Part shown: positions 1 through 51,494 of the stretch, piece by piece | How positions within the stretch are numbered: position 1 is the first letter of the stretch | How the letters are laid out: every line of letters starts with the position of its first letter | From: Macrostomum lignano | Lineage: Eukaryota | DNA: 64,000 nucleotides | Reading direction: 5' to 3' | NCBI GenBank assembly: GCA_002269645.1 | Contig: NIVC01002967.1 | Coordinates: 64,323 to 128,322, forward strand | The notes under the pieces: generated by a model | The model's input: the letters and a program-made list of their open reading frames with translations, nothing else | The model's database searches: none | Told to the model about the DNA's origin: nothing | Program-made: the position numbers and the translations under genes

Positions 1-3000
1 GAAGTACAGGCCTCGTAAGGTAGATTCCAAAGTGGCTTTGATCCATAAAGGCCCCATGCTTCGAAAGGTTCGGCTGACCTTCCAAGAGGCCCCGTCTCTG
101 ACGTGTCCCAATGGGCTATTCGCCCAGTGGGTCGAGCTAGGCGCCGTGAGAGCCGATGCTCAGAACCTCTGTCCGTGTTTTCGAACCAATAACGTCAAAA
201 GACACTGCTTGGCAAATGGCAGCATTTGGAAAGGCGAGACCGCTCCGCCAAAGGACGCTTGGTATCAGCCGATAACCGAGGAAGAGAAGGTGGAGCTGGA
301 GCGGATCGGTAAAACAGCCGTCGTCGAGCTAGCGGAGTCCACGGCTGCGCTCATCAAGCGCCAGTTCCAACACTACAACAAGGCGAAGCCCAGTCGCCTG
401 GCACCGCCCGTCGACCAGCTGCCAGAAACGCCGGTGCCGCGCAAGAAGAAGCAGTCGGCGGATGACGGCACGGACTCGTCTCCAGAAGCGCAGTTGCCTG
501 TGAGTAAAGAGTGAAGTTAAAAATTTCGTGCTTTTTTTAATGCATTTTTTAATATATAAGAAATATATATTAAGTCACTCATAATATTTCCACAGAAAAC
601 GGTACAGTTCCAACCGCTAAAGAAGCCCAAGGCGGCGGCAGCAGCTGCAGGATCAGCCCCTGCCAAACGCAGGTCGTCGGATGAGGAGTCGCCATTGGCG
701 TCCATCGCGGCTGGCGTCGCGGCCCCACTTGAAGGGGTAATTTTTACTGTAATATTTAGTTGTTCATTTACGGCAAAATTCAATGCGTATTATGTGTGGC
801 AAACCAAAAACTGCTGAAGGTTCCTTAACCAAATCTATTATTTTACAGCAATATTCCACACGTTATATACATAGTGAAAACAGAGAGTATGGAAATCCAA
901 ATGCTGTAAATTCCGTTAATTTAATATTCACCTACAGTTTAACACGTCCAATAGGCTGTAAATTCAAGAGTATTAAAATCGACACGTACAAGTTACAGTA
1001 TTTTACTACATAATCTAACTTTAACCGTGAAGTAGGTTCGTTACATGTACGTTGCAAATTTACTTTTGACTATAAACTTAATCGAACTTCTCAAATACTT
1101 CATTTGAAATTTTTTATTTGAAAACCAACTACCATTCTCTTTCACAGATGGATTCGTCGTTGCCGCCTTTCGTCAGCGTCCACCGGCAGCTCCCAGCACT
1201 AGCCAGTTTCGGTGTTCCGGTGGTGGCACCGGCTAGTTTTGCGGATGCCGCATTGCCCTCGGACTGGCTCCTCCTCACCAGGCTCATGACGGCGCCGGAT
1301 GCCGACCAGGGCGCTGATTCCCTGGCCGCTCTGAATGCCTCGTTTGACAGCAGCACCCAGAACGGCCGAGATGACCTGGCCATTCTGGCTGGCGCCCTGA
1401 ACAGCCTAGATAAATGTGACCTATTGGCGGTTCTTTTTAATTTTGCTATCCGCCAGAATGGAAACATCAAGGAACTTCAGAGCTGCTTATTTGATTATAT
1501 CAACGCTGGAAAGGACCACCGGACCTATGGCATGCAGCGGATCAACTTCGGCGGCATCACGGAGCGAGACGCGATTTACACCGAAATGGTGTTTGACCGG
1601 GAGTTAAACTTAGGTCTGTTGATCCACAGGTTGAACGGTCTCAGCCGACGTAAAAGCGCTCCGCCCAATCTAGGAGAGGAATCGGAGGACAGCGTGGTCC
1701 AAAGACCAATGACAAGACAAATGGATGCGTCGACAAAGCCAAAGCATGCTGCCACCGCTGCTGCCTGCATCGTCTGTCCCAGTTGCTGCCGAGCCGGAGA
1801 CAACTGTCGTGCGCTCTAAGAGCGCCATCGAGGTAAGAGACTAAAATTCGAAATTCGCAAAATACTGAATTTCACTAGGTATTCAAATTTCCACACGTTC
1901 ACAACGTAGTAATATACCCCCACAATCACTACACACAGGCTGCCGAGTCGGCTTTATGCGCCGACACTGCTGCAACAACCACCGCTTCGGGTGCCGGCAC
2001 TGCCCCAGCAGCAGCAGCAGCAGCAGCAGCAGCCTCAACTATTCCGAAGGCCAATAAAAGGCGCGGCAAGACGGCTGCTAGGGGCGCCGCCGCTTCCGAT
2101 TCCGGTGCGCCGTCTTCCCCGGGAGGTCGTACTGCGGAGACACCGGCCGTGCCTTCTAAGAGCGCTATCGATGTAAGAGACTGAAACTCGAATTTCGCAA
2201 GATATTAAATTTAACTACGTATTGACATTTCCACACGTCCGCAACGTATGTAAATTATAGTGTACCAAAATTCAATACCCTTTAAAATTAGAACCCTGCA
2301 AGATAGAAACATTTTACGATATTCCTAAATTCAACTTGTAATATACCCCCACAATCACTACACACAGGCTGCCGAGTCGGCTTTATGCGCCGACACTGCT
2401 GCAACAACCACCGCTTCGGGTGCCGGCACTGCCCCAGCAGCAGCAGCAGCAGCAGCAGCCTCAACTATTCCGAAGGCCAATAAAAGGCGCGGCAAGACGG
2501 CTGCTAGGGGCGCCGCCGCTTCCGATTCTGGTGCGCCGTCTTCGCCGGGAGGTCGTACTGCGGAGACACCGGCCGTGCCTTCTAAGAGCGCTATCGATGT
2601 AAGAGACTGAAACTTTTTCGCAAGATATTAAATTTAACTACGTATTGAATTTCCACACGTCCGCAACGTATGTAAATTATAGTGTACCAAAATTCAATAT
2701 CCTTTAAAATTAGAACCCTGCAAGATAGAAACATTTTACGATATTCCTAAATTCAACTTGTAATATACCCCCACAATCACTACACACAGGCTGCCGAGTC
2801 GGCTTTATGCGCCGACACTGCTGCAACAACCACCGCTTCCGGTGCCGCCGCTGCCTCAGCAGCAGCAGCAGCAGCAGCAGGCTCAATGAATACGAGGGCT
2901 GCTACAAGGCGCGGTAACACGGCTGCTACGGACACCGCCGCTTCCGGTGCCAGTAAAACGCCCGCCGACATCGCCGCTGGCGCCCCTGCTGGCGCCTCTG

Positions 3001-3341
3001 CTGGCGCTTCCGCTGGCGCCTCTGCTGCCCGCACCTCCGCTGGCGCCTCCGCTGGCGCCTCCGCTGGCGCCTCCGCTGGCGCCTCTGCTGCCCGCACCTC
3101 CGCTGGCGCCTCCGCTGGCGCCTCTGCTGCCGGCACCTCCGACGCCTCCGCTTCAGAAAGCGCTGCTAGGGGGATCACGATACGCAAGAGGTCTGGTTCT
3201 GACTCGGTGCCACAAGTAACGGAAAAAAAGGAGGCGCGAGTTTCGCACCATGAAGGGAAAAGAAAACAAAAGCAACTCAGTAATGGAAGAAGGAGAGCAT
3301 GTAAGAAGAGTGCTTCGGGGCGGAAAAGTTTACCCCAGTGA
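1..3341 (+). CDS. Multi-exon gene of unknown function, 5' end outside the window. Exons <1-499, 596-736, 1148-1832, 1939-2172, 2368-2598, 2790-3341; Ala/Ser-rich basic C-terminus; one apparent +1 frameshift near 1765
   Basis: GT/AG sites at each boundary (gtgagt 500, gtaatt 737, gtaaga 1833/2173/2599; cacag acceptors). All junctions are phase 0 and the frames join the listed ORFs. Exon 3 is 685 nt (3n+1), so one frameshift is needed. No domain recognised. Confidence 0.65.
1905..2885 (+). repeat. Tandem duplication of a ~425-bp intron+exon unit (2 full copies plus 1 partial)
   Basis: taatatacccccacaatcactacacacaggctgccgagtcgg recurs at ~1910, ~2340 and ~2761, each followed by a CAG/GCA tract. 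Confidence 0.95.
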
Positions 3342-3529
3342 CTCGGACAGTTCGACATCAAAGATTTAATTTAATTTTTCTAATTTGCTTACAAGTTCTC
3401 CACTCTGGGCAACTCTGCGTGACAAGTTTTGTTCTAATTTCTGTTTTAAAAGAAAAAAATACATTAGAAAAAGAATTCCAGCAACTTTTCGTTCTCAAAG
3501 AAAAGAATGGAAAGAAAAAACTACGAACC

Positions 3530-5190
3530 GGTAAATCGAACTTGACCCTCGTGTCTACTGCTTCGTGACAGTCTATTTTTAAGAAACTTCTGAGATTCGA
3601 ACAGTAAAAAAGTATGGCACATCGAATTTCAGCACGTCAACAAGATATGTAAATTTGAATTGTGTAGTAAATTCGAGCATGCTAAACTGTAGAATTTCAC
3701 TACGCATTGAAATTTCCACACGTCCACAAGATATGTAAATTACACAGTACCGAAATTTGAACGTCGCAAAATGTCGAATTTCACTACGCATTGAAATTTC
3801 CACACGTCCACAACATATGTAAATTAGTCAGTACCAAAATTCAAACGTTGCAAAATATTGAACTTCACTACGCATTGAATTTAGCTACTGGGAATAATTT
3901 CCTATGGAAATAAGTTACCCACCCCGACTGCTTGGCGGCCAATGTGCAGTTGCGAAAAACTGACGCGGATTGGTAAGTCGAACTCAGATTTTGGCGAAGT
4001 CTGTGAATTCAAGAAAATTAAAATTACCCGGCGACTAACTCAATCGACTGGATATCAGTCCAGCAGGCTCTACTTTGAGTGGCGCCGGTCAAAGTACTTC
4101 CCAGAGGTCTCACGGACGAAGAAGAGTATTTTGGTACCTTCCGAATTTCATACACATCTTATGTAGCAAACTCTATGGGTAGTAAAATGATTTTGCTACG
4201 TATGTGAAATAAATACACACCCAGTGTACCCAACTCTTAGCTAGGAAATTCAATTTTGGCCTAAAAACTCTTCAGGCGCCGAAAAGGTCTCCATCGTAAT
4301 CAGCGCATTGAATTTAGCTATTGTGACTAATTTCCTATGGAAATAAGTTACCCACCCCGACTGCCTGGCGGCCAATGTGCAGTTGTGAAAAACTGACGCG
4401 GATCTGCAAGTCAAACTCGAATTTTGGCAAAGTCTGTGAATTCAAGAAAATTAAAATTGCCCGGCGACTAGCTCAATCGACTGGATATCAGCCCAGCAGG
4501 CGCTGCTTCGACTGGCCCCGCTTAAAGTACTTCCCTGAGGTCTCAGGGACGAAATAGGATATTTTGCTACGCTTCAGAATTTCGTACACATCTTGTGTAG
4601 CAACGTGTATGGTAGTAAAATGATTTTACTATGTATCTGAAATAAATACACACCCAGTGTACCCAATTCTTAGGTAGGAAATTCATTTTTGGTCTACACA
4701 CAAATTCAGACGCCGAAAAGGTCTGCATCGTAAGCAGCGCATTGAATTTAGCTAGTGTGAATAAAAAATACATAAAATTCCAACTTGACTCTCGTGTCTA
4801 CTGCTTCCTGATGCTTTTTTTAAGAAAGTTCTGCGATTGCAACATTAAGAAAGTACTGCACATCGAATTTCAGCACTTCAACAAGATATGTAGATTAGAC
4901 TTGTGTAGTAAATTCGAGCATCGTAAATTGTAGAATTTCACAACGTTTTGAAATCATCCTACGTCAAGCAGGGACGTAAGGTAGAGGGTAGCAAAATATT
5001 GAATTTAACTACGCATAAAAACATTCATACGTAAAAGACATCGTCAAAAGAAGGGTAGCAAAAAATAAACGTAGTAAATTGCATAATTTTGCTACGCAAC
5101 AAGATTTTCATACGTAAAAGACATCGTCAAAAGAAGGGTAGCAAAAAATAAACGTAGTAAATTGTATAATTTACTACGCATCAAGATTTT
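3530..5190. repeat. Composite tandem-repeat array: ~84-bp units, two 434-bp units and a duplicated ~165-bp block
   Basis: actacgcattgaaatttccacacgtcc at ~3700 and ~3784; cattgaatttagcta at 3872, 4306 and 4740; 3535-3700 resembles 4778-4945; catacgtaaaagacatcgtcaaaagaagggtagc at ~5026 and ~5110. Confidence 0.9.
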
Positions 5191-5329: not shown

Positions 5330-6810
5330 GCATTTCCCGAATATTATTTTCCCCTATTAGGGCCCTTCTTATCCCAAACAGAATCCCAAACAGATAGACA
5401 CTTGTTTTCTGGATCGGGATGAATTTGGTTATGCAGATTAACAATGAAGCTATAGTCGTAATCACTCACTCCAAGTACATCCGAGTAATTATATTCCACC
5501 GATTTAGTAACGTAATCGTCGTATCTATACTCGCGAAACTCACCTGTAGCGAGATCATTTACTCCATCGTTAAACCCTAGCAAATTCCATTTCATATCGA
5601 ATTCAATTTCATTGTTAGTAAACCTCTCTTTGAACAAAGTAGTTACCTGTTTGAGCTTGTTGGCTCCTTGTATTGAATTTATATTCTTCATTGTACTCTG
5701 TAGTTTCTTTTCAAGTGCTTTTAACTTCTCTTTATCATCAGCCGCCTTCTCAATTGCAATTTCGAGTCTAGTCTTTCGGTGGTTTAACTCACTGCTAACA
5801 AGGTCTGATATTTTAAGAAATATGTCATTTATACTACTTAGTTCTCTCCACTCATCATCATCAAAATAGTAAATACCATCGCTATTGTAAATTATATTAT
5901 TTTTCTTATATTCATAAACAAAGTTGGTTATGTTAACGTCAGTGAAATTATCATCAAGATACTCAATTCTACCATAATAATCATATTTGCTTTTCCATTC
6001 CTTATATTTGTTATAGTTTTCTTCACTTGCCCATTTCTTTAGTGTACCGATAGTAAGTCTGTCCTGTGCATCAGCAGAGCTGGCACTGGTGCTATTCCAC
6101 AGCTTCTCACATGCCTCGGAATCGAACCTATTATAATTTGCTTTTGACCAATTAGTGAATACTTTGTACATTTCATCACCACTGTCTATGTCGCGGAGTA
6201 TAAGTGCTACCTTGTACCAAGAACCATAGTCTTGGTTTTTGTGTTGTATTATACTTAACAACTTTGAAGCTCCTTCACAAGTGGGGGGTGGAACGGTGCT
6301 TTTTAGTGCCTGTTTATCGGGTTCTTGGTTTTCTTTTTTATCCTGTGGCTTAATTAATCTATTTATCTCATCAAGAATTACATCTGTCCCTCGCACTTTG
6401 TACGTTTGTATTCCTTCATTTCACCATCCACATAATAGAAACCTGGTGGAGCAAATACTAAAGCCGGAATATCAAAACCCACACTTTGTTGAATCGTTAC
6501 TTTTAATCCATCTACCTTGTTAAAGTAAAAGTGATGACCCTTGTTTGTCTGAACAATCCAATCACAATGAGTCATACACAGTTCAATCAACTCAGGGCAT
6601 AGGTCAGCATTATCAATATCGATTACGGTTATATTTGAGATTTTCGTATCTATCCAAATCATGTTGTCTGCCTCTGGTCGAAATGGTGGGGAGGTTGAAT
6701 TCCTATCTGCTTTGGTTGGCATTCCTGACGGTATTTTTTTCTTTGTTTTACTATTCCATGTTATACTGCAACTTCCGAATCTAAAATTAAGTTCTCTATA
6801 GAGATTAATT
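5330..6810 (-). pseudogene. Viral-type primase-helicase remnant: AEP prim-pol + PriCT-2 + D5_N, frameshifted near 6390 and truncated before the SF3 ATPase
   Basis: ORF 6378-6722 has AEP motifs TVIDID, QTNKGHHFYF and GFDI. ORF 5344-6396 has the PriCT-2 pattern (DYGSWYKVALIL..FTNWSK..LWNS..LTIGTLKKWA) and D5_N (NLLGFNDGVNDLATGEFR..DYVT). No Walker A follows. Confidence 0.85.
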
Positions 6811-6812
6811 AG

Positions 6813-7310
6813 TTAATCGTAAGATTTTGTTTGTTTTAAATTTGTCAATCTTGGTGGTGGGGCATCATGGTTTTGAAGCGGATCCTGTACGATCACAGGA
6901 GAGACACTTGAATCATTCTGATTTTTTCTTTCCATTTTATTAAAAATAAATTTAACAATATATTGTAATTTATCGGTTTCAATGTACTTCTCACGGGTTA
7001 TGGGGAGTTTAAAAATGTTCAGTTTCAGCATGACGAAAAATTCATCATTCCTTATGTGCTGTCTCGAAATCAATGCCCATTTATCAACATGTGCAAGATA
7101 TACTCTGAATGAATACAATTATGGGGGGCATTTACAATCGGTGTGTTTTAATATTTCTACTTTATATTCATCGTAAGCTTTATCAATTTCTTCAATTAGT
7201 CGAGCCTTTCGAGTGGGTGTTTTATTTGAGAGAAACTTACAATAGAATCATAGTATTTTTGTGGCAGAGCATTTCGAACATTTGGGTTATTAGCTTCCAA
7301 TTTTTCTAAG
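6813..7310 (-). pseudogene. Degraded AT-rich ORF upstream of the primase, product unknown
   Basis: ORF 6813-7118 continues upstream through frameshifts (…LEKLEANNPNVRNALPQKYYD…IEEIDKAYDEYKVEILKH…). Same composition and orientation as the primase. Confidence 0.35.
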
Positions 7311-7838
7311 AAAAATTAGCAGTTACAATCTGGTTTTTGAATTCTGGTTTCGCTGATTGAGAGATTGAGACTGACTCACACCACACTCCGCTGCCACTCT
7401 CCGAGACTCTCACAGGAGTTCAGTGTTTTTTCATCTTCATCAAACCCCCTTATTCAACCCATAAAAGACACTAGGGGCACCCCTCATGCTAGCTGTCTTT
7501 CACAACAATTTATAGGCTGATGCAGGACTGGCACACTCACCAACTCTCAAACGTTATGCTAGTTATTTGTGTGTGTTTATTAAAAGATACTCTCTATCTC
7601 AACTCGCACAACGAACGCGTGAGTAATTGTTAGAGATTCTTTGTTGAAACAAATACACTCACACACATATCAAGTTTAACGCATGGCTCACACCCACACA
7701 CTTTTGCTAGTTGTAACCTGTTATCGGCTGACTGCGACCCTCCCCTCCATCGCTATATTAGTTTTATTTAGCTTAGCAAGCAAGAGCAAGAGAAAATTTA
7801 CTTTAGGTCTAGAATTCTATCTATACAACATATTTCAA

Positions 7839-10800
7839 ATGGCTTCTTCCAGCGATAGAAAGCTTCCATCTAAGATAGTTTCCACGATTAAGAGTATTAG
7901 CTCAAAAGACCAATCAAGTTCAGCAGTTGCAGTTAGTCGCTTGTCTAGCGAGGAGCAGAACTCATTACTGGAAAAACTGCGAAAGATTGAATGTGAGTCC
8001 TTCAAGAAGGATAAGAAGGAAGAGAAGAGCAAAGAGAGCGATTCTAAATCTATTAGAGAAAGCCGATTTATTGGACGCCTTATCGAAAAAATGAGAGGAG
8101 TGACAAACGAAGTAACAACTATCAAGACTCGGTGTCTTGTTGCCTCGGTTTATATCCCAGGGGACAGAGACCCTGCTCCTGAGAGTTTACTGCGCCTCGC
8201 GCAGTACTGCGAGTCCCAGAACGCTGAGCTGTGCTTAGGGGGCGACCTTAACGCGCACCACAAGCACTGGGGCAGCAAAGATACCAACACTAGAGGAGAG
8301 GAGCTTCTGGCCCTCATCTTTAACACAAACCTCATGCTCTGCAACCGCGGCAGCACTCCTACCTTTAATAATGGCAGATGGACCGAGGTCCTCGACGCCA
8401 CACTCGTTACCCCAAGACTCTTTGACAGAGTTGAGGAGTGGAGAGTCTGGTCTGAGGAGCCCTCCCGGTCTGACCACTGCTTTATCGCCTTTAACATCGC
8501 GGACACTAAAACCCAGTCTCCGATCACTTGGAGGCGCAATATCCGCAACACTGATTGGGCGGCCTACAAGGCTGCCCTTGATCTGCACCTGCAGGAACTC
8601 ACGGACTTACGTCCGATTGAGACCTGCGAGGATGTGGATCATATGGCTGAGACGCTGACAGGTTGCATTATTGCAGCCTACGTAGCGGCTTGTCCTGCTC
8701 GCGCCTACAAAGGCAAGACCTCGGCGCCGTGGTGGAACCCGGAACTGGGGAAACTCAGGCGGAAGGCCAAAAGCCTTCATCGCCGTGCCATGAAGACCGG
8801 AAACCCGGAGGACATGGAGCTTTTCCGGCAAGCCTCCCGCAACTTCAAATCTGAAGTGCGCAAGGCCAAGGAATGTAAGTGGCGCCAATTCTGCAATGAA
8901 TTAGATCAAGACAGACCTACTTCTAGGCTTGTCAAGGCCCTTACAATGGACAAAATGTCCAAATTAGCCATGATCAAAAAAGATGATGGCTCTCTTACTA
9001 AAGACCCTGAAGAAGTGCTACAGCATATGCTCAGCACATTCTTCCCGAGGGTACCTACTGCTAGACCGGAGCCCAACCATTCGATGGATGGAGCCACCCT
9101 AGCGGCGGGCATTGTCACTGAAGACCTAATCGCTCGTGCGGTCAAAACCTTCAAACCCTTCAAATCTCCTGGACCTGATGGTATCTACCCTGTTCTCCTT
9201 CGTGAAGCAGCCAAGATACCCTCGTTCCTGAGACTCACCCGCAATCTTATGCGGGCCTCTATCCAGCTGGGATACGTTCCCAAATGCTGGACTGAAGCTC
9301 GGGTAGTCTTTATTCCCAAACCTGGGAAGGGTGACTACCAAAGCGTCAAGGCCTTCCGGCCTATTAGCTTAACGTCAGCAATGCTTAAGCTCACTGAGAG
9401 GCTTATTCTCTGGCGGCTGCTGTCCTGCGAGCTGACAGCGATGCCCCTCAGCAATAATCAGCACGCCTTCCATACCGGGAGGTCGACTGACAGCGCCCTG
9501 CATGCGATTGTCGAGAAGATTGAAAGGGCGGTACTGGGTGACGGTTACGCTCTGGCTCTCTTTCTTGACATTGTTGGCGCCTTCGACAACGTTATCTTTG
9601 AAGCGTTTCAGAGGGCCCTTCAAAATCGCAAAGCTCATGCTACCCTCATACGGTGGATCATGTACATGATCTCCAACCGTACGGTCACTGCCCAACTTCT
9701 TGGGCAAACTGCCTCCACCAGAGTCTGTAAGGGTGGACCCCAAGGCGGAGTCCTCACCCCGACGCTCTGGAACCTGGTCATGGACGCTCTTTTGAGTGAC
9801 TCCCGACCCGACCCCGTCTTCAAAGTCGGGTATGCTGATGACGTCACGGCCATTGTGGCAGGACCGTCTCCCAGCACGCTCAGGGATCTGATGCAGAGCT
9901 TTATCCGCAAAGCAGAATCCTGGGCCAATGACAATGGTCTGGAACTCTCTGAGCCCAAAACCGTTGCCATTATGTTTACCAGCAGACTACGCTGGAACAT
10001 ACGTCCTCTGCAGCTCTACGGCAGAGATATTGCCTTCGCGCACCAGACCAGATGCCTCGGGGTCATACTTGACCACCGGCTCAACTGGTCCTCCCACGTG
10101 AAAGCAAAAGCCAAGCGTGCCTCAGCCATCCTGGCCCAGCTCCGACGAGCACTTGGCACTTCTTGGGGTCTATCCCCAAAGCGGCTTTGGTGGATCTATA
10201 CTTCCGTAGTTAGACCTGCCATTACGTACGCCTCTGATGTCTGGATTAGCGCTACCCAGGTAAAAAGCCATGCAGACCTGCTCAACACGATCCAAGGCAG
10301 AGCGTGTAGGCTCATCTGCAACGCCACCAGGTCCACGCCCTTTGCTGGCATGGGGGCCTTCCTTAATATTCCGCCTCTTGACCTCTTCATCAGGGGTGAG
10401 GCGGCTAGAACGACGCGGCGTCTAATTGATGCCGGCGTCAAATTCATTTACATGAGAGCACCTGCTAAGCGGAACCTTGTCCCGCATAGCGATCTGTGCC
10501 TCAACTTTCTCAACGAGTGTCAGGCCAATCGCGTCTTCACCGATGGCATTGCCTCAACGCTCAACCTGAGACAGCGCTACTCCGTAGCTATCGACTCGCG
10601 CGATAACATCAATGACCAATGGAACCCTGGTGAGCTTCATTGCTACACCGACGGTTCTAAGCAGTCAGCCAACACCGGCTTTGGTGTTGGAATCTTTCTG
10701 AACGGGAGGGTCATCGCTACCCACGCTCAATACACTGGGGTCAACTCCAGTGTTTTCCAAAATGAAGTTCTGGCCATCAGCTCCTGCACTGCAGAGCTTC

Positions 10801-12199
10801 TCGCCACTGGCGTTACTGGTAAGAACATCATTTTCCATTCGGACAGCCTAGCTGCCTTGCACGCCATCAGTGGCTGCAGCACCAACTCTGCTACAGTCCT
10901 CGACTGTATCAAACTTCTCAACGTGTTGGGTTCCGCCAACAAAATTACCCTTAAGTGGGTTTCGGGGCATGTGGGGATCCGAGGAAATGAGTTGGCTGAC
11001 ACCCTTGCAAAAGTTGGTGCCTCCGGCTCCTCTCTCGGCCCCGAACCTCTTGTCCCGATTCCTGGCTGTGTCATCGACTCGCGCATCAAAGCGTGGATCA
11101 GGACTCAGCAGACTTGGGCGAACCGCACGAACTGCAGACAATCCAGAGGCGCTGTCCCTCAGCCCTCTCACCAGCTCCGGAAGCTCCTCTTGCGCCTCTC
11201 GCGCAGAGACATCCGGGCTGCCACCATGACCCTCTCTGGTCACGGCTGCTTCTCCAGGCACCAGTACCTGCAGGGCAACGCCACCAACGCCACCTGTAGT
11301 TTCTGCAACTCAGGTGACGAAACCGCTGAGCATTTTGTCAGCATCTGTCCCGCCTTCACGCGGGCCAGACTCACTTACCTCGGGCCACACACATCTATTA
11401 CTGAAGCGTGCAAACCCGAAAACTTTAATCAGCTCATGCGCTACCTTCGGGCCACCCGCAGGGCTGAACTCTCCTTTCCAGAGAGCACCATAGCTGCTGG
11501 CGACACTGGGGGACCTCCCTGGGCGGCGCCAACCCTCCGTCCATAGCGACGCGTCGGCCGTTCAGGGACTAGCGGAATGGGCGCCCGCGCCTTCCCGCTG
11601 TGTCCCCTCCGGGACAGCCCTGCAGCTAAGTCAAGTCAATCAAGACTCGGTAAGTTTCAGTTTCATTCTCCATAATTTCATTGAATAAAAGCAAATATCA
11701 TAACTTGAGTCTATTTTCATTATAGGTTCTACAACGCAAAGGTGTGCACATCTATCATTGGCGATGATGAGACTCGCATGATCCAACGGTTCAATCAACT
11801 GGAGGGTTTCATCGCCGACCTTGAAGTGCTGGGTTGTATTGCCAGTAAGAAGAAGCAGAAGTAATTGCTGCGTTGCAAGAAAAACTCGGACTGAGCATTG
11901 AAGGAGTTGCGAGAAAGCTAGATATAGATGTGAAGTTTGCCCAGCGACTATTTACATTCTACAAGCTAACAACAAAGTACCCGAGTCTGGTAATTTCTGG
12001 ATATTGCTTTGAGACCCTTCTGACGTTCAAGAAGGCAATTGAACAAAGAGCATCAGAAGATGAGAATTTCGCATGCCGCCTCGAACTCGACATCGTACTG
12101 CACTTTGAAGGAGAGGATGACAGCATGCTTGATGAAGAAGAGAACGACACGATTGAAGCAGCCACTAGCGAAATGGGAAGCGCTTCTATTGATGAATAA
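7839..12199 (+). pseudogene. Spliced gene of unknown function interrupted by the LINE. Exon 1 is 7839-8131, intron 11650-11725, exon 2 runs from 11726 to the stop at 12199
   Basis: Removing the LINE and one TSD copy restores exon(phase 2)|gtaagt…tatag|exon in frame (…TIKTR-FYNAKVC…). A stop near 11863 needs either a frameshift or a 35-nt intron to reach ORF 11873-12199. AATAAA overlaps the stop codon. Confidence 0.6.
8134..11638 (+). mobile_element. 5'-truncated non-LTR retrotransposon (LOA/R1/I-group-like) with partial APE, RT, RNase H and a C-terminal zinc knuckle
   Basis: Open ORF with GDLNAHH..WGS and SDH (APE), GPQGGVL and YADD (RT), YTDGS and GHVGIRGNELAD (RNase H), CSFC..ETAEHFVSIC. 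Tail of aagtc repeats. 13-bp TSD atcaagactcggt at 8121-8133 and 11639-11651. Confidence 0.95.
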
Positions 12200-13054
12200 A
12201 CACATGACAGACAAATATCCAGAATTTTTTCTGGACGTCCAGAAAAATTGACATGCTACTACTTAAAGTGACAATTATCATTCAAACATTCACTCCGCGC
12301 TACTTACCTTAGTATATACCTTGAAAACAACTCTTTGAAATAAAGGCTGCCTTTGTGCTCCAGTGGAGCCACCCACTCTGTGTGTCTGAGAGTCTTTTGT
12401 GTTTGCTTCATTTATTTTTTTCTAATTCTAAAAATAGACAAAAATGTGCCACGTTAAGGGGTTCTGATACATCATCAGCATTGTGAGTCAGAGCTGTTGG
12501 CTTGCAAAAGAATACCCTCGTATATGAAATTCGCCAGGATACTTTCCACTGGAAAAGATGGGTGGTAGTTTTGTTATAGCTGACTGAATATCTAAGGCAT
12601 TTCCTAGAAATATTGGTTTACTGAAGGCCATTTTATAATATATAAAATTTCCTATCGTTGAATTGGATGACACTTTCATATTGTATATACCTGAAATTGC
12701 ATTAAATTGACCCGTGAATCCAACTTTTCTCATGGTTTTAGAGTTGGAATCGTGAAAATTGCACTTTTTCAATTTTTTGAAAATCACAAAAAATCGCTGT
12801 TTTCAGACCATTTTCACCTGTTTTTAGTCAATTTTTCACTTATTTTTAGTGATTTTCAAAATGAGTGAGGGCATGAGGGCAAGGGCACCCCCCTTTTTAA
12901 AAAGTATAAAAATTCCGGAAAATCTGTGTTCTGTGAAATTCCACATGCCAATGCCCCCACATGCCCTCACCCTCAACACCCTCACTCACAGATATATGTA
13001 TATTTATGTATTTTTATATTTATCACACACCACTTGCAACTCTGACCTCCTGGT

Positions 13055-13154
13055 AGTAGTAGTATGTTATAAGGGGCTGAGTCATCCAGCGAGCTGGCGC
13101 GCAATGCGCCCGAGCAATCAAGTGTGGCGCAGCCCCTTATAACATACTACTACT
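13055..13154. mobile_element. 100-bp element with perfect 25-bp inverted termini starting AGTAGTAGT (Maverick/Polinton-type end)
   Basis: agtagtagtatgttataaggggctg (13055-13079) is the exact reverse complement of 13130-13154. No TSD is visible. Confidence 0.6.
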
Positions 13155-13479
13155 TGTACGTTAAAACATTTTATTATTATTAGTAAAACTTGTGTTGCTA
13201 GAAATCTCATTGGTATCCTGACTCAATTCTTTAACTGTAAATACCAGAATTAGGGAAAGCAGGAAACTGGTGGCAGCGAAATCTACCAATATACCCCGAA
13301 AATCCACTAAGTTCTAAAGTAGAAAAAACCAGTAAGCCTAGACTGCGAGTACCACGCTTGTCCACCTTCGTGTACACGCATTTAATAATTATTTTCAACG
13401 TAATTTCTCCAAGGCAACCCCCAAAAACTCTGCCACACGCAGCTCCTAACGAGCAAAAGCAACAGCGGCATCAGCAAGA

Positions 13480-13484
13480 TGAGC

Positions 13485-13515
<31 letters not shown>

Positions 13516-13552
13516 GCAGCAGCAGCAACAACAGCAGAAGCAGCAGCAGTAG
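13480..13552 (+). repeat. (CAA)n(CAG)n polyQ-type microsatellite in a decayed ORF
   Basis: Direct reading. The downstream frame is interrupted by TAG codons. Confidence 0.85.
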
Positions 13553-14146
13553 CGGAATGAACAGTTCTTACGAATCATGTAGGGGCTAAAAAATGGAAAC
13601 TTTGTTATACATAGATGCCAGCTGTTTGTTTAGCGCAGAAGACTAATGCAGGAGTTTACTTCGGGCGTGTCATAAGCAATGCACTGATATAAAAGCAGAC
13701 GAACTTGCAATCGTAGATAAACAAAATTGTATCAATCAACAACATCTCCCAATATCAATCACACACTGGTAGTGCTCATAGAGCTTCTCCATCTCAGCTT
13801 GTATGTTTGTCCGTCATCTGCCAGAAACACTGCAACGCGGCCTGTTTGACCATGAAAGGTTGCTTATGACATTACTTTGACACACCCGAAGTGATTCTTC
13901 GTATTCCGTAGCCGTGGGAACCGCAATATTACCATATTGTACTGGTGTGAAGCCGTCGTCATTTTCCACTCTGCTGTTGAATGGGTCGCTGGTCTTGGGT
14001 CGCTCGTTTTTTTAGAACTGGACTCTATGCTTCACTATGTTAGCACTCCGACCTTATGTACAGCTTGAGCCTTCATTACTAGTACTAAGCTAAAAGAGCA
14101 GAAGAAGCAGTGCATTAGGGAACAGTTAGCCAATAGTCAGCCGAAT

Positions 14147-14986
14147 ATGTACCACGACTCAGAGAGCGAATATGAGTACGAAGATGCGGTGCAGTTTCTG
14201 CCAGTGCAACATGAAAATAATGAGCAGTTAATGCCAGTGCAAAATCAACATAATGAGCAGTTAATGCCAGTGCAAAATCAAAGTTAGGGCAGCAGAATGG
14301 AGGAAGGCGATCCGGAAGGAAGACTAGTTGTCGGCGTATATCTGGAGGAGTTGGAAAAAGAGACTGAGAGAAAGGAGGTCGAGTTTAGGGATGAGATGGC
14401 AAGATTCATGGAGGAAATTCGGCAGCAGGAGGAAGGGGTGGATCCCATCGACGAACCGGAGGAGACGGCCACAGACCAACCGACGTGCCAGCTGGAGCAG
14501 TATCAGCCAGAGCAGTGCCAGCCAGAGCAGAGCCAGCTTGAGCCTGCATCAGATTCGCTCATAGATTATGCGACGCTGCTCAGGGTGGACTTGGGCGACA
14601 AGCCGGCCCCTGAGGAGACCAAAACCGGACGACAGGATAGCCCCGGTACACAGGCGTGGAAGTTCCGCAAGTGCCATCGCGACCTGAAACAATTTATCCT
14701 GGCCACGGGAAGAACGGGGCGGTTCGAGGCCCAGTTACCGGAGGCCTGCGTCCAGTTCCTAACCACGGCAACGCCAGAAGAGGCAATTAGGTGTTTCGAA
14801 ATCACCTGCTCGTACTGCCTACAATACGCAGAAGGGAAGGCGCGGGGTCCAACTTGCATGAGGGCGACCGCCGAACAGCTCGAATTTATCGCCAGTCGGT
14901 TCGACCCCGTCCGCCAACTAATCCCAGTAAACGGACTACTTTACCTGTCTGCTCAGAATACTTTAAATCTCAGGCCAGTTAATTAA
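14147..14986 (+). CDS. Unknown acidic protein, possibly a pseudogene (in-frame TAG at ~14284 separates an MYHDSESEY… leader from ORF 14297-14986)
   Basis: 229-aa ORF with protein-like composition and a 36-bp duplication in the leader. No recognisable domain. Confidence 0.35.
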
Positions 14987-15177
14987 GTAGACTAGGAAAC
15001 CCAATCAAATAATAACCCTTCCAAGCAACATTATTAACACATGCTCGATGCCATCATATTTTCACATTTTACCATCCTTTGGAACATCTTCAAATCCGAT
15101 GGTCAGCGTGGCTGACCATGCATCACTTTAGCTAAAATCCAACTCTTTATGGCCATAGACTTAACTTTTGTCTTCAC

Positions 15178-17626
15178 TTAACAGCATATCGCGAAAACCC
15201 ATATGGTCAGCTTGGCTGACCATGGCTGTAAGTAGTCTATATGAAGTATAATAACGAGAAAACATGCATTCAAGCATGTCAAAAACTCAAAAATATCGTC
15301 AAAAATATCAAAAACATGAAAAAATTTTCACAAAAAACATGAATTACTAAAATTCCTTTTCTCACTCTGCTAAACGGGTGAAAGAGCATAGCTCGAAGCT
15401 GTCTGCTCAATCGCACCTGAATAGTAGGGTGCTGAACTAGTAAATAACGTTCTGTTTTCGACTTTTTGAAACTTTTTCAAGTTCTTAGTAGTTAAAACTT
15501 TGAAATGGTCTCAATATTTTGAATTTCTAGCTTCCAGATGTAGCATTGCTTTGAGTTCTTTTCTAATAAATTTTGCAAAAGATCCAGTAAATGTAGCTTT
15601 ACTTCTGTTGCTATTACACTACCTAACTTTTATGCAATGTGAGGCAAGACAATAACAGGTAGTCGGCAGGAGTAAAACGAACAACTCTCCTCTCAGCCTA
15701 CGAGTGCCAGGCTCGAAAGCAGTCAGGGATGCACAAGCCGGGCTGACCCGGGCACTGCTGACAGACGAAGACGGTACGTTTGGTGATGCCATTGCGATAG
15801 CAGACTCTGCAGCGACGTGTTACTGGGCAAGTGAACAGCATCGGCAACAGGACGCGATGGGTGGACGCACCGTCTTTTTCCAGGCCCTGAGCTGTCTATC
15901 AGGGCAACGATCAGTTGTTCCATGAACTTCAGAAAAGTCAGTGAGCCGCCGGAGTGCCGGAACAAAATCCAGGCATTTTGCGACAGCTGCAATAGGAAAT
16001 GAATTCCGAGCTTCTGGTGCCAGCGGTACATCTTTCTGCTTGGGTGGTAGGGCTGCAGCGCAGAGTCAAGGCGGTCGACACCACCCATGGACTTTGAGTA
16101 GTCCGTCACAGTCACCGGCTTTCGAACAACCTCCATTTGTCCACCTCGTCTGTACCGTTGTCGCGCAGTGCTCTGGGCCGTACCGAAGGTGTCAAGCAGG
16201 TAGACTGTCTTAATACCGCTTGCTTTTCTGTCTGTCAGCTTCACTGCCAAAACATCACCGCTTCGCATGTAGCAGTGGGATGGAGGCACTGCTGGCATCT
16301 GCCGGAGCTCGACTGGAATGCCGCGGTCACAGCGAACGGTGCCTGTTAGTAAGGTACTGTGAGCTAGTAGAAACTCGGCCAGTCGTCGGGAGGAGAAATA
16401 ACTGCCAACAAACACCCTGTAGCCAAGATTTAGCAGGTCCTTCGAAGCTCCACCACTATTCGCTCGCTGATGGACAGGTTGTAGTCGACGAATTCGCTGC
16501 CAAACTTGCTGTTTTCCTCAGCTGTCGAATGAACGAGGACGCTCCATAAGTAACCGGTCTTGGAGTCACAAAGACAATAGGCCTTAATTCCATATCTAGC
16601 CCGCTTGCTGGGAATATACTGTTTGAACGCTAGTCGTCCTTTGTGCTGAACAAGCTCCTCGTCAACAGCGATGTCCCTGTCAGGCTGAAAATTCTGCTGA
16701 CAAACTTCCTTTACTGAGTTCAAGAACGGGCGGATTTTGCGAAGCGGATCGTCATTGTCACCAACGCGACAGTCGTAGAACCTCAGAAAAGATAAGATTT
16801 GTTGGAACCGGTTTCGAGACAGGCAGTTTTCACTCAGGAACAACTGGTTGTCATAAAACTTTCCAGTGGCCCAGTAGTTTTTTATCTCTGGCTTGCGCAC
16901 GATTCCCATGTAAAATATTATTGCGATGGTCTTTTTTATCTCATCATCTGCACAGTCTCTCCAATCGGTCAATCTCGGTGGCAGCTGCTGGTCATCCTCT
17001 TCGTTCTCAAAGATTCGCAGCTCCTCCCATGCGCGAGCATTGGTGAATTCTTTCAAATGACTAATAATGTCCTTCGTGAATAAGTTGAAAAAGAGTAACG
17101 GCTCATTTGCTGGTGCTTGAACACCAGGATTCATACCGTGGACTCCGAGAAACTCGGGAAGCTGCCCAGCTCTGTCATCTTCTCCGTCGTTGACAATTGT
17201 CCATTCGTTTTCCTCATCCTTCATCTCCAAGGTTGGCTCCTCAATTACTTCAAAAACTGAGTCCTGATCTGACTCAGTCGATGAGCTGTTGGACTCGTCG
17301 CTTGTAAGAAGTTGATGAAGACTCATTATTACTTATCCGTCGAAATAGCAAATTATATGACAATTCTTCTTAAAATGAAGAGGCAAACAATCTAGATTGA
17401 ATGTAAAGGAGAAAAATCTTTCTAGGGATAGTGACTTAGTAGGTACGAGGAAGGAAGGGCAGAAGCAGTCCACAGTGATAGGTTCTATGGCTGAAACCCC
17501 AAAGCAGGTCACAGAGTGTTCCAAACACACTCTCTCAAGTAACGGGTTTTGGCGATGTTAAAGCAGCACTATAATTTTACATAGCAGTAGTCTATGGTCA
17601 GCCTGACCATACGGGTTTTCGCTTAA
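15178..17626 (-). mobile_element. piggyBac (PGBD4-like) transposon, inactive. Transposase remnant at 17326-15698
   Basis: DDE_Tnp_1_7 motifs LSRNRFQQILSFLRF, AVDEELV, QYIPSKRARYGIK and MGGVDRLD, plus a Cys-rich tail CRVC..VFVCQQC..LC..CF. Frameshifts near 16440 and 15815; DNY changed to GSY. Inverted ends gcgaaaaccc(a/g)tatggtcag at 15191 and 17622, with TTAA at 15178 and 17623. Confidence 0.9.
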
Positions 17627-20289: not shown

Positions 20290-20930
20290 TTAAGCCATGC
20301 GCTGCAATAGGGATCACATCTTCAGTCTGGAACTGTAGCACAATCTCGTGAATCTCCTTATTACTCGTTTCGCTTTCCCTTAATATTCGTTCGCTTTCCC
20401 GTAAAAAAACCCAATCAAGACTGAGATTACTTCTGATTCGAATATTCAAACCTTTTACAATGTCTGCAATATTGGGTGCTAAGAACAAACCGCTTACACT
20501 TTCCCGGGCCATGCTAACAACCCACGATGATTCTGGCGCTTCAGTTCCAGTCCGCGCCGTGGATTCTACCCTAAGCTTTCTGCTCAAATCCCAATTCCCT
20601 ATACCAAGTGTCATCTTTAAACTCAACCTCCGCATCTTTGTGAACTCTCATTACAGTGAGATCATAGGCTAGTTTGACAGGGAACAGTTCTGGCCTACTC
20701 AGATCAGGTGTCTTAAAATGGCCTCTTTTAGTAAAGACGTTTTCTAGAAAGTAATTGTAAATATCCACACTTTGCGTGCTCACAGGGAATACCACAGCTT
20801 CTGCTGCCACACCTTTCCATTTGTAATAAAACTTATTATTTGCTGCCGTCACATTAAGAACGTTTGACCAACCAGTGAATCTTATTTCGCAAGGATCAAT
20901 ACCCCCGAAGACGTTGCAAAAACAGTTCAT
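20290..20930 (-). pseudogene. Minor capsid protein (penton), frameshifted near 20600
   Basis: NVTAANNKFYY…VFPVSTQSVDIYNYF…VEFKDDTWYRELGF…APNIADIV..IRSNL…IHEIVLQFQTEDVIPI follows the Maverick/adintovirus penton pattern. Confidence 0.75.
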
Positions 20931-21589
20931 TTTCCTTATATTGCGGCTCGTCTTCTTGAAGAAATACTTCCATATTTATCCTTCTTAAGTCAGATTTTCT
21001 GTGGCTGGATGTGGGGGGGGGTATAAGTTTACTTCTTTGTTTCTGTTTCAATGCAACAATGCGTTCCTTGAGAGTCGAAAGAGACGGCATGTTTTGGCAG
21101 AAGAGACATGCACAATTCTTCCTTGAATTTAATAAAGAAGACTATAGAAAGTTCTAGAAGAAAAAATTGCTGTCATGACTATTTTTAAATATTCATAGAG
21201 GCAAACTAGGCGGACCAAATTCCGAGGCTGAGGCCGAATAGGCAGGCCAACTGGCCTCGCAATTTGGCCAATAATCAATATCAGTCAAGGAGAGAATCCC
21301 AACATACACAGTCCATGCATGCTAATGGCGGCGAAGCGGTTGATTTTTTCCTTTTCTGCTTTTCTGGGAGAATGAGAGAATCCCTATTGTGCGCAACTCT
21401 TTAGGGAATAAAAAACTGTCCTTACTCAAATCCACACTTGGCACCCCCCCCCCAACATATTCTCCATCTGCTCAACTAAGCATAATTTGTACACTGCTTA
21501 AAAAAGCATTTGCACATAGCAGGCTACAACAGCGACAGCTATGTTTAAGCAGCTCACATTCTCTCAATGATCAACATCAATACAAACTC

Positions 21590-22156
21590 TTCACTGTTGC
21601 AGCAGTCTGCCTGTTTTTTTACTGGGCGCGTGCAATAGAAAACCTAACCTTTCTCCCAAACACCCCTCCAATCCAAAAAAATGAGCCCTATTTTTTGGCT
21701 TGAATAATTCTGCTCTTTCAACCCCCAGCTCTCTCAGCAGTCTTCCTAGTTCTTCATTAGGAGCATGCAATACAAAACCCACCCCTTCTCCCAACAGCCG
21801 CCAATCCCCAATCCCAGATTTGTCCCACGAAAAATAACAGCTTTAACTAGCTTCCGAGTGATCGATTCCATCCACCCGCTTGAAGTCCCCATATTGTCTA
21901 GTCTCCTAAGCATTTCTTTGTCCCAGCAATTCTTCTCTGAAAAATCCCTATACTTAACGTCGTGCCACATGCAGACAGAGTCTAGCTTGTTCACCGGCTC
22001 ATGCCCAGGATTTTGATTATTGTTTTTATCTAACTGAATTTCAAGCGGATTCAAAGACTCGCAATATTTGTAGCTGGGAATTGTCCAGCCTTCGTTTGGA
22101 TGAGGAAGCTTTTCTATCAGTCCATGTGAATCTAAGTTACCACCAGAGCGTTGCAT
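21590..22156 (-). pseudogene. PLA2X (parvovirus VP1-like phospholipase A2) protein
   Basis: GGNLDSHGLIEKLPHP..GWTIPSYKYC..LNPL..QL…PVNKLDSVCMWHDVKY…WDKEML..LD…LGLG. The His-Asp catalytic dyad is retained, but the Ca-loop (YxGP) is degraded to YCES. Confidence 0.8.
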
Positions 22157-22180
22157 TTTATTAAAAATCTTCTTTAAAAA

Positions 22181-23036
22181 ATGACAGAGCAGAGACTTTA
22201 AAAGCTCTACTACAGCAACAAAGCATTCTTTTTAGGAAAAAATGCAGTCACCAAACTCGCAGAACTAAGTAATGAATCAAAGCAAATAGTTAAAAGATGG
22301 CTTTCCAAGCAAGCAGTCTACCAAGAAGTCTACTTCCTACCTCTTCAATTTACAACACCTCACTTTAGCATTATAAACCTAATGAGGCGTACCAAGCAGA
22401 TCTTGTTTCTCCCCAATGACTGAGGCTACAAGTATGCTCTCATAGTTATATACATTGCCTCCAGATATAAGGAAGCGAGACTACTCAAGACAAAGAAGTC
22501 AGAAGCAGTTGCAGCTGCCCTCCAAGAAATTAAAACTCTCCGCTCACATACCCCCAAACCTTTATGACTGATCCTAGAAAATAATTCATGGGTGCAGTCA
22601 AATCTCTTTTGGAAAAAACAATACGAAAATGTGCTACAGAAGAACTGAGCTCTACAGAGACCAGGCTTTTGTGGAAAGATCCTATACCAAGTGGACAGAA
22701 AGACTCCCCACTGAAATAAATCAACTGAACAATGAAGCATCTCAAGTGACAAACCTGAAACCAATTACTGCCATCAAACAAGACACAGTTAAATCAAAAC
22801 ATCAGATAGGAATATATTCTCCAGAAATTCTTACTTACTCTGAATTCGTTCGCCTCCTTTACTTACCAGGAGAGCTAGAAAAGGACACAAAGAGAAGAGC
22901 AACATACCCATACTTAAGTCTTGATGTACATAAGATAGATAGGAATTTCACATCAGCATCCAGTGATTACTATTTTCTATCCCAAGCCTTAAATTCAAAA
23001 GCCCCACATGATCATTCACAAAGGCTGAGCTTCTAG
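22181..23036 (+). pseudogene. Maverick/adintovirus retroviral-like integrase, multiply disrupted
   Basis: WLSKQAVYQ…PNEAYQADL…YKYAL.VI.IASRYKEA..LKTKKSEAVA…MTDP…RDQAFVER…VRLLYLPGELE..KRRAT. The D-D-E residues are readable across stops and frameshifts. Confidence 0.85.
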
Positions 23037-23078
23037 TAATTCCACATGATACAGAAATAAATACTTTTTTTAAATAAA

Positions 23079-23490
23079 ATGATTGAAACCAGATCCGTGA
23101 ATAAAATCAACAGAATTATCGAATCAAAGAAGCCAGGTGTTGTGTCAATTAAAGGTGTTAATGTCAAAGTAGATCCAACACATAATATCACTGATGAGAA
23201 GACTGGCAAGATTCTTCCTTTGGCAACTCTAATCCCCATCCTAGTAGGCGCTCTTGGTTCCGCAGGAGGTGTAGCCAGCAGAGTTGCATCAGCTGTGAAG
23301 GCTTCCAATGACAGTGCACATCAATGAGAGATGGAGAAAATTGCTAGAAAAAAAGGAGTGAGAATTGGAGAAGGAATGGGTAGTTGTCCATCAGTTGATG
23401 AATCTGTTGACGAAATTAGCAAATCAGAAATTGTTAAAGCCATCATGACACTGCATAAAGCAGGATTTACAATATTTTGGATGTGAATAC
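23079..23490 (+). pseudogene. Small Maverick-type protein with an amphipathic Gly/Ala-rich segment (premature stop at 23325)
   Basis: ILPLATLIPILVGALGSAGGVASRVASAV…Q*EMEKIA resembles the conserved small core/membrane-active protein of Mavericks. The frame continues to ~23490. Confidence 0.5.
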
Positions 23491-24524
23491 AAAATAGAAC
23501 AGAATCTGCTTCTTATTACAGCAGTAATTCCTTATACTTTACACGTCACTTGAGAGTGACCACCCTAAAATTTTTGTTAGTTTTTTAATTTTCATTTAAA
23601 ATGTCTAAAGAAAATCCTGAAAAAAAATTATCGAATCTATCTTTCAAAATAATTATCCTTAAGCTCAAAAGTTTTAACAAAAAGTAATGTTCTGCAAGAT
23701 CTGTGCTAGAAGGCTTGGACAAAAATTGATTTTAGTCCAGGAGTAACATTGTAACAAATTTATAAAAAGCATTTTTAACTATTCCAAGCACCGGCATATG
23801 GTATAACAAAAAAATTGTTTTAGTGCATGGTGCATTAGAAAAAAATGGGAGAAGTTTATTCTAGCGCACATGGTATACCTTCCTGACTATGGTATTTTAT
23901 TAGGTATATTTCCGATTTTTATAAAACCTAATATTGAGTAATTTATTCTCAAAGTTGCACATATATTTGTTTTTATACAATTTTTACCTTATGGTATTCT
24001 CACTAAAGTCCCTATGCTATTTATTGCTTTAAAATTGCCAAAAATGAATTTGAAAAAACTTGCCCGGTTAATTTTTGGATTTTGCCTTCTTTTAGGGCAG
24101 GCCCTAATTAAGGACTTCAATAAGATTTTGAAAGTTGAAAATGATATAGAAAAAATAAAAATTTATAATTCTAACACTCTCCTCTGGCTTTATCAAATGT
24201 ATGTATAAAAATACAAAAAAAACTTTCAAAATCTTAGTGAAGTCCTTATCCTAATAAAGAAGTTGTAGACTACTTCAAGTTACAATAATTTTCATAGAAT
24301 GAATTATAATAAACAAGCTGTTGAAACCCGCGGATTTTGAACCCGGGGAACTCCATTTCCCGGAATTATTTTTGCATGTATTCTAAAATCTAAGGTAAAA
24401 CTTAAACAAAAACTTGTTCCCTTGTTAATAGTTAGGATAGAGTTAAACATAAAGTAGTGCACATTCATGTAAAATTAGGATTTGAGGCAAACATTGATAT
24501 TGTTGGCTGGGGTGCTGCGCAGAA

Positions 24525-27226: not shown

Positions 27227-27274
27227 AGTAAAAAGGTAAAAAGTTACTAAACATGACTGTATAGTAACTTGAAA

Positions 27275-27712
27275 GGCAATCCTGAAGATTCCCGCGTTGA
27301 ATTATTTTACACATTTTTATACACATTTCAGCCATAGAATTATGGCAGGGCAACCTCCAGCACCCCAGACAATCGTGGATCCTCAAGAAGTTACACTGAC
27401 TATTGAACTAGCTGAACTTAGCATCAACCATTGTGAATTGATGGCTCTAACTAATGAGACAGGCATCCAATGGCTGGCCAAGTATGGGCTGCTATGAAAT
27501 TCCAGGCCATGCACGGGACTTCGGATGCCTTTTTTAGCACATACCTGCAATAGTTCATGTGGCGCCGGGCCTTCCTAGACCATCAGTTTGGCAATATCCT
27601 ATACTGGATTAGATACTATTACCCGTGCCAGTAGTGTAACACTGACAGACTTTTTTTATTGGATTGCTTTAATTCCATAAAATAATTAAATGTGGGAATC
27701 TTCAGGATTGCC
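27275..27712 (+). mobile_element. Merlin (IS1016-like) internal-deletion derivative, 438 bp
   Basis: TIR ggcaatcctgaagattccc (19 bp perfect) and 8-bp TSD acttgaaa/acttgaat. It retains the transposase N-terminus (QWLAKYGLL) and C-terminus (YLQ*FMWRR…FGNILYWI..YYP). Confidence 0.9.
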
Positions 27713-29999: not shown

Positions 30000-30600
30000 T
30001 GTAAGGATCTCCCGGTCACGTGATTCTGGGTAGCAACAAGCTTATAGCCAATCAAAAAATTCGGCACTCATTTTAACAAAACGGCTCAGCCAATCAGAAT
30101 CGACGTCTTCCATTATAACAAACTGCGGTCCAGTTGGCGGTTATTTAAACCGGTGTTTTTGGCCCGCTCGGACCTCAACTTTCCTGGTTCCTGCTCCACC
30201 GGCCAGGAACTGACCGTCGTTTCTTGATCCCCGCGGATTGCGACTTCCCCCCATCATCATCAAGGACGAATCCCCCGGTCATCAGCAGCGAACATCAAAG
30301 TTAAGATCATCACCTGCTAGCTATCTGCGAAGACTGTGACAGCATCATCCTGAGTCTACAGCTGCAGAGCATCAAGCCTGTTAGTCTGGGGACCGGGAAG
30401 GCCAGCGCAGAGTGCGCAGCTGTAGCTGTTCCTTCAGTTGACTAACAGCATCGGCTTGGTGTGGCGGCGTTGTTCCTGGGCTTGGGTCTGCTTAATGTCC
30501 AGGCCTGGACCATTAAGCAGACCCAAGCCACCCCCAAGCGGCAATAAGCTTTGCGCGTCCCCTGAAAAAATAATTTCGCTTAGTGGGGTAGAACTTTTGA
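30000..30600 (+). mobile_element. LTR-like sequence (TGTAAG start, two CCAAT boxes, TATTTAAA) containing a 51-nt palindrome
   Basis: tgtaagg at ~30000, agccaatca at ~30047 and ~30088, tatttaaa at ~30143. No matching end or TSD was found. Confidence 0.35.

Positions 30601-34273: not shown

Positions 34274-51494
<17,221 letters not shown>

Follow-up and report, generated by a model that had tools for sequence, protein, structure and literature searches.

A 100-bp hairpin with Maverick-type ends near a truncated primase block in Macrostomum lignano

Genomic context

The window analyzed in this study is a stretch of 64,000 nt of the Macrostomum lignano genome (assembly GCA_002269645.1, contig NIVC01002967.1, positions 64,323 to 128,322), to which all coordinates refer. 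A host FHOD-type formin gene is located on the minus strand, with exons at 35586-54738 and an upstream extent that is judged from ORF content. Over 167 residues, one of its FH2 exons matches the M. lignano protein A0A1I8HBU7 with 100% identity, and five stretches of this protein map to 35703-39092. The hairpin considered here (13055-13154) lies about 22 kb downstream of the formin gene, amid mobile-element debris. At the other end of the window, one long ORF of 465 aa with a protein kinase domain was observed at 59970-61367.

To the right of the hairpin, Pfam recognized a piggyBac-type transposase (DDE_Tnp_1_7) in two frames of the minus strand at 15726-17332 and, farther on, an ORF of the parvo-type PLA2 family (21749-22231; E 1.9e-7). 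We take the stretch at 20300-23500, in which this ORF is contained, to resemble a decayed adintovirus module with integrase-, penton- and core-protein-like stretches; these three readings were unconfirmed by Pfam, PDB, Atlas and PHROGs, and only the PLA2 domain was supported. PLA2-like genes occur in parvoviruses, too. For adintoviruses, such genes are described in passages of PMC8502044.

Various inverted repeats are distributed over the window. A 410-bp fold-back element at 40315-40724, with long arms and an 8-bp target site duplication (TSD; AACAAATG), represents a separate non-autonomous family. A 51-bp near-perfect palindrome without TSD lies at 30479-30529, and MITE-like inverted-repeat pairs are found at 24109-24248 and 27260-27727 (28 bp at 96% and 50 bp at 80%, respectively). 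The 64-kb window contains further hairpin elements, whose perfect arms measure 16-43 bp, so that the presence of a hairpin is in itself no rarity in this genome. The left part of the window (1795-4954) consists of tandem exon-like units of about 420 bp with poly-Ala tracts, after which come a 462-bp duplication and repeats of the subterminal type. This part is probably a further mobile element of large size that borders on the truncated primase gene described below.

The neighboring primase block

Left of the hairpin, the block at 5377-12263 carries two broken genes in opposite orientation that face away from each other. The first is a primase gene on the minus strand (5377-6848), in which Pfam placed Prim-Pol and then, in another frame, PriCT_2 and D5_N; the Prim-Pol match (E 0.001) was below the cut-off. 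This fragment shares 44% identity with the primase relative P0016, and the similarity found by tblastn stops at P0016 residue 633, ahead of the SF3 helicase P-loop (columns 651-657). Matches to the primase at E <= 0.001 were obtained for 994 representative proteins, the top three with 36-41% identity. A search among proteins of similar length gave no relative, the query being a fragment. When P0016 served as the query, 14 proteins were retrieved, and the closest four full-length relatives are unnamed and located on contigs of 3,078-5,554 nt. Among 75 candidate stretches in GTDB, none was confirmed for a primase relative.

The second gene, on the plus strand at 7839-12199, has two exons (exon 1 at 7839-8133, exon 2 from about 11726) and carries a frame break; an AATAAA at 12195-12200 overlaps its stop codon. 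Its C-terminal part is HTH-like, a label that we regard as a weak lead (Atlas 0.90-0.95, Foldseek E > 0.5). No Pfam or PHROG family was assigned to this ORF, and fold searches with it gave no match at E <= 0.001. The exon/intron boundary of the gene is occupied by a 5'-truncated non-LTR retrotransposon (LINE) with APE, RT and RNase H, which lies on the plus strand at 8121-11651, has an open reading frame and is bounded by a 13-bp TSD (8121-8133/11639-11651).

According to passages of PMC10120064, primase-helicases occur in TIR-bounded endogenous PLV/Maverick-type elements of protists, and a passage of PMC3671162 states that some Polintons encode an SF3 helicase. Because such genes are reported there, the primase block can be of the Maverick/PLV class without being new. 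The left end of the block is absent from the window, and therefore no pair of terminal inverted repeats (TIRs) is shown for it. The block is possibly more interesting than the hairpin itself.

A third terminus-like motif

At 12251-12263, the minus strand carries the motif AGTAGTAGCATGT, which resembles the ends of the hairpin and is a candidate right end of the block 5377-12263. It lies 790 bp left of the hairpin and is identical to the hairpin end at 12 of 13 positions, or at 13 of 15 when extended, with both differences being C/T and divergence beyond. This terminal match between the hairpin and the truncated primase block is the closest approach in the window to a TIR shared with a full-length element. 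With one mismatch allowed, the outer 13-mer was found three times in the window (expected 0.04), namely in the two arms and at 12251-12263. When the surrounding 2 kb were shuffled 5000 times, a match like the third end appeared in 7 cases, and 300 shuffles of the whole window gave 13; these figures somewhat overstate the significance because the pattern was one of 7 settings tried.

The third end is situated 64 nt past the stop codon of the two-exon gene, with the poly(A) signal overlapping that stop, as expected of a compact element end. Just inside it lies a perfect 22-bp palindrome (12226-12247). Between the third end and the hairpin, an AT-rich spacer of 791 bp (12264-13054) gave no phage match. 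An imperfect GA/CT-rich hairpin was seen within this spacer at about 12862-12988, 66 bp left of the 100-bp hairpin.

The initial annotation had considered that the 100-bp hairpin could be the terminus of the primase-bearing block. This was not sustained: the hairpin is bounded on either side by an end that points outward, and at 12263 the block carries a candidate right end of its own. The hairpin and the primase block may instead be sister elements. Since their two ends diverge after base 15, we regard the block as a sister family and not as the direct parent.

Structure of the hairpin

The 100-bp hairpin is a genuine piece of mobile DNA in M. lignano. Its left terminal arm (13055-13079, plus strand) is 25 bp long and starts with (AGT)3, and the right terminal arm (13130-13154, minus strand) is its exact reverse complement. 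Both ends of the hairpin start with AGTAGTAGT and thus show the end motif of Mavericks, (AG)3 or (AGT)2, in its (AGT)2 form; the full arms read AGTAGTAGTATGTTATAAGGGGCTG, and pairing stops outward of them. In 30 shuffled windows the longest perfect inverted repeats measured 11-14 bp, compared with 25 bp here. The fold of the 100 bp reaches -34.8 kcal/mol (z = -7.85), a stability attained by none of 200 shuffles. Inverted-repeat analysis, shuffles and fold z thereby bear out the extent of 13055-13154 and the perfect 25-bp inverted termini that had been noticed initially. A further claim, that the stem continues for 5 bp after one mismatch, proved right as to the extension, but not as to full pairing: 3 of the 5 positions form Watson-Crick pairs, and one mismatch and one G-T wobble account for the others, so that 28 of 30 positions are complementary overall.

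The arms enclose a non-coding interior of 50 nt (13080-13129), the first and last 5 nt of which prolong the stem weakly. It is without special structure, as 563 of 1000 shuffles fold as well or better. A Y/T-shaped fold with two interior arms, similar to a parvoviral ITR, had also been proposed. When the single-stranded DNA was folded, this two-arm structure reached -25.1 kcal/mol versus -34.8 kcal/mol for the minimum (9.7 kcal/mol above it, probability ~8e-9), and every pair of the CCAGC arm had a probability of at most 0.1. The Y/T fold was consequently abandoned. Being short, non-coding and furnished with TIRs, the hairpin has the general make-up of a MITE.

Target site and flanks

The hairpin is flanked by GGT|TGT. 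In 17 symmetric registers around it, no exact TSD of at least 3 bp was found, and hence neither a perfect 6-bp nor a perfect 5-bp duplication, in agreement with the initial remark that no 6-bp TSD is visible. If one base is trimmed per end (element at 13056-13153), a possible degenerate 5-bp TSD appears on the plus strand, consisting of TGGTA (13051-13055) on the left and TTGTA (13154-13158) on the right. These copies match at four of five positions, which 5.7% of 100,000 random flank pairs achieve by chance, and this near-TSD is suggestive only. Allowing a one-base stagger, CTGGTA and CTTGTA agree at five of six positions (chance 15.8% of 100,000 random flank pairs). The ends of the element in the near-TSD register would be GTAG...CTAC, not AG...CT. 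A check against the TSDs of MITE superfamilies yielded just TA/AT dinucleotides within the arms, together with the five-mer that matches at four positions.

As an exact TSD is absent, two boundaries come into question, 13055-13154 if there is no TSD and 13056-13153 if a 5-bp TSD has mutated. The missing duplication is informative and not a matter of general decay, because the LINE (13 bp) and the element at 40315-40724 (8 bp) retain theirs.

Copies and database matches

Apart from the two arms themselves, no further copy of the hairpin is present in the 64-kb window. Exact 22-mers of the hairpin had no match in GTDB genomes, and no match to phage sequences was obtained. Matches to two plasmid records covered just 26-32% of the query, all within its GC-rich interior, and were treated as chance. 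Across the window, Rfam gave no match at the gathering score, and no tRNA gene was found at the hairpin; 9 sub-threshold Rfam matches in 12200-13400, including a plant miRNA model over the hairpin with 20 of the 160 bits, were dismissed.

Neither 14-mer arm string was found in the papers retrieved for them; the 12-mers alone occurred, in papers unrelated to the subject. The hairpin sequence, a Maverick derivative of about 100 bp and Mavericks in Macrostomum are all undescribed in the literature searched, which comprised few subscription papers and was without Repbase. The M. lignano repeat library of 2017 excluded elements below 200 bp as well as unclassified ones, as stated in a passage of PMC5730564, and a hairpin family of about 100 bp would for this reason have escaped it.

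Origin of the hairpin

We posit, giving it about an even chance, that the hairpin derives from an AGTAG-ended Maverick/PLV-class element, the interior of which was lost by internal deletion, and is itself non-autonomous and of MITE size. What is seen directly is that the ends are paired and face outward, that they carry the (AGT)n motif, that the hairpin has no coding capacity, and that a related end closes the primase-carrying neighbor block. The hairpin would represent the two outermost ends, of 25-30 bp each, of a parent element of which nearly all of the interior is gone. One way to such an internal deletion would be the rejoining, across the loop, of ends that had paired within a displaced single strand. 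Encoding nothing, the hairpin would depend for its movement on trans-acting enzymes from a full-length relative, and the outer 15 bp common to it and the third end may be the site to which the enzyme binds. AGT repeats are the kind of terminus that is used in the initiation of protein-primed replication. A host function of the hairpin is improbable, and it is probably an ordinary non-autonomous element, with the end shared with the primase block as the one worthwhile lead.

The derivation from the Maverick/PLV class is favored by the surroundings, in which transposons (LINE, piggyBac) are piled up and a PLA2 ORF of parvo type occurs, and by the D5-type primase encoded in the neighboring block. 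Against it stand the single copy in 64 kb, the lack of an exact TSD and arms of 25-30 bp, and no tool confirmed pPolB, capsid or integrase in the window. The initial interpretation as a mini-element or collapsed element is still the best reading, although the TIR length and the TSD of Mavericks are missing. If dispersed copies exist, Maverick/PLV-class elements can yield true MITE-sized passengers, and the required cis sequence would be bounded at about 25-30 bp per end, which is hard to approach with elements of 15-25 kb; M. lignano is a transgenic-capable model. If the hairpin is single-copy, it is an ordinary fossil within the transposon pile-up.

It is possible, if rather unlikely, that the hairpin is a MITE of an ordinary cut-and-paste superfamily, with its true ends inside the apparent arms and a coincidental likeness to Mavericks. 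An element with a TA target could occupy 13059-13150, and TA indeed flanks the sequence at trims of 4, 7 and 10; alternatively, such a TA-target element could be the core TGTTA...TAACA at 13065-13144. A TA target does not account, however, for the bases beyond it, which are complementary and recur in the third end. The inner TGTTA, 10 bp inside the hairpin arms, fits the TGTNR end of Ginger elements as given in passages of PMC2836005, and the third end has TGTCA at the equivalent position. The 4-bp TSD of Ginger is absent, though, and the flanks AGTA and TACT form no duplication. As a second variant, the element may be 98 bp long (13056-13153) and have inserted at a 5-bp TNNNA target, with a single mutation thereafter. 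This agrees with the outer 5-mers TGGTA, TTGTA and TTAAA, which are all TNNNA, but has to be weighed against the frequency of the near-TSD (5.7%) and of the staggered match (15.8%) among random flanks.

Another reading, which we consider quite unlikely, makes the hairpin a minimal satellite of small linear elements that form a family apart, encode their own primase-helicase and have AGTAG ends; these would enter without TSD by repair or by a recombinase. The end shared with the primase block is consistent with such a satellite, and so are the T that all three ends abut on the plus strand, the absence of an exact TSD and the short contigs (only 3,078-5,554 nt) of the four closest full-length primase relatives. 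These contigs may, however, be mere fragments, and the block, which shows no recombinase or integrase, may be just one end of a larger PLV or Maverick of the ordinary kind; none of the 75 GTDB stretches was confirmed as the DNA context of relatives. In a fuller form, there would be an undescribed Macrostomum family of small linear AGTAG-ended elements in which a D5-type primase-helicase and an intron-containing HTH gene replace polymerase, integrase and capsid, and which integrate without exact TSD and have 100-bp satellites made almost wholly of ends. We assign a low probability to this family; if it is real, the hairpin would be the smallest unit that acts in cis in an animal system of this type.

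There is a slim chance that a pre-existing end underwent a one-off local inverted duplication, by template switch or fold-back repair, and was never mobile as a unit. The absence of an exact TSD and the single copy in the window would be compatible with this, and the palindrome at 30479-30529 is a second one without TSD. Yet both arms stop exactly at the recognized end motif, and there is a related end close by. Finally, the viral terminus suggested initially, which would be a parvovirus or densovirus hairpin telomere integrated in the genome, is largely refuted and highly improbable: a stable ssDNA hairpin and a parvo-type PLA2 domain 8.6 kb away would suit it, but the Y/T fold is not formed, piggyBac sits between the hairpin and the PLA2 ORF, and the six-frame Pfam scan of 12200-15070 revealed no viral gene, be it of an NS1 or a capsid family.

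Comparison with known systems

The parvoviral Y/T-shaped ITR is a hairpin of similar length, but the M. lignano hairpin has neither the two-arm fold nor adjacent viral genes, and the block on its left encodes a primase, not NS1. Spy transposons share with it TIRs without TSD; according to passages of PMC4122938 they insert at AAA|TTT and start with GGANNNNG, whereas the hairpin is flanked by GGT|TGT and ends in AGTAG. Ginger1 and Ginger2, with TGTNR ends and a TSD of 4-5 bp in passages of PMC2836005, differ from the hairpin, where TGTTA lies inside the arms and its flanks form no duplication. Judged by ends and flanks, the Spy, Ginger and TA-target identities did not agree with the hairpin or were not favored. 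Cut-and-paste MITEs in general are tiny and non-coding, with short TIRs and a stable hairpin, as is the case here, but the M. lignano hairpin is without an exact TSD and without a matching superfamily end.

The neighboring block resembles endogenous PLVs with primase-helicase (PMC10120064) and transpovirons (PMC5499653), which are linear DNAs bounded by TIRs with a primase or helicase gene; the passages in question concern giant viruses or the genomes of protists. For transpovirons, PMC5499653 gives an SF1 helicase, in contrast to the D5/SF3-type primase and the intron-containing gene of the block, in which no capsid or integrase was seen.

To our knowledge, the non-autonomous Polintons described so far are much longer than 100 bp. 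With Maverick/Polinton elements (adintoviruses), the hairpin has in common terminal inverted repeats and the ends 5'-(AGT)2//(ACT)2-3', a motif published in PMC8097293. In the passages of that source, intact vertebrate Mavericks are 12.7-24.6 kb long and have TIRs of 46-1447 bp and a perfect 6-bp TSD, while the hairpin measures 100 bp and is without genes and without such a TSD. Its arms of 25 bp (perfect) or 28 of 30 (extended) fall short of this TIR range, which refers to vertebrate elements. Families of pPolB, rve integrase, ATPase, protease and capsid were absent from the 22 + 11 ORFs and 12 frames scanned. The initial equation of AGTAGT with a Maverick end is therefore upheld for the motif, which agrees with the published one, but not for a TIR of at least 46 bp or a perfect 6-bp TSD. 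Because these defining features were tested and are lacking, we do not file the hairpin as a Maverick; in its mode of working, it is comparable to a non-autonomous TIR element whose ends are of the Maverick type.
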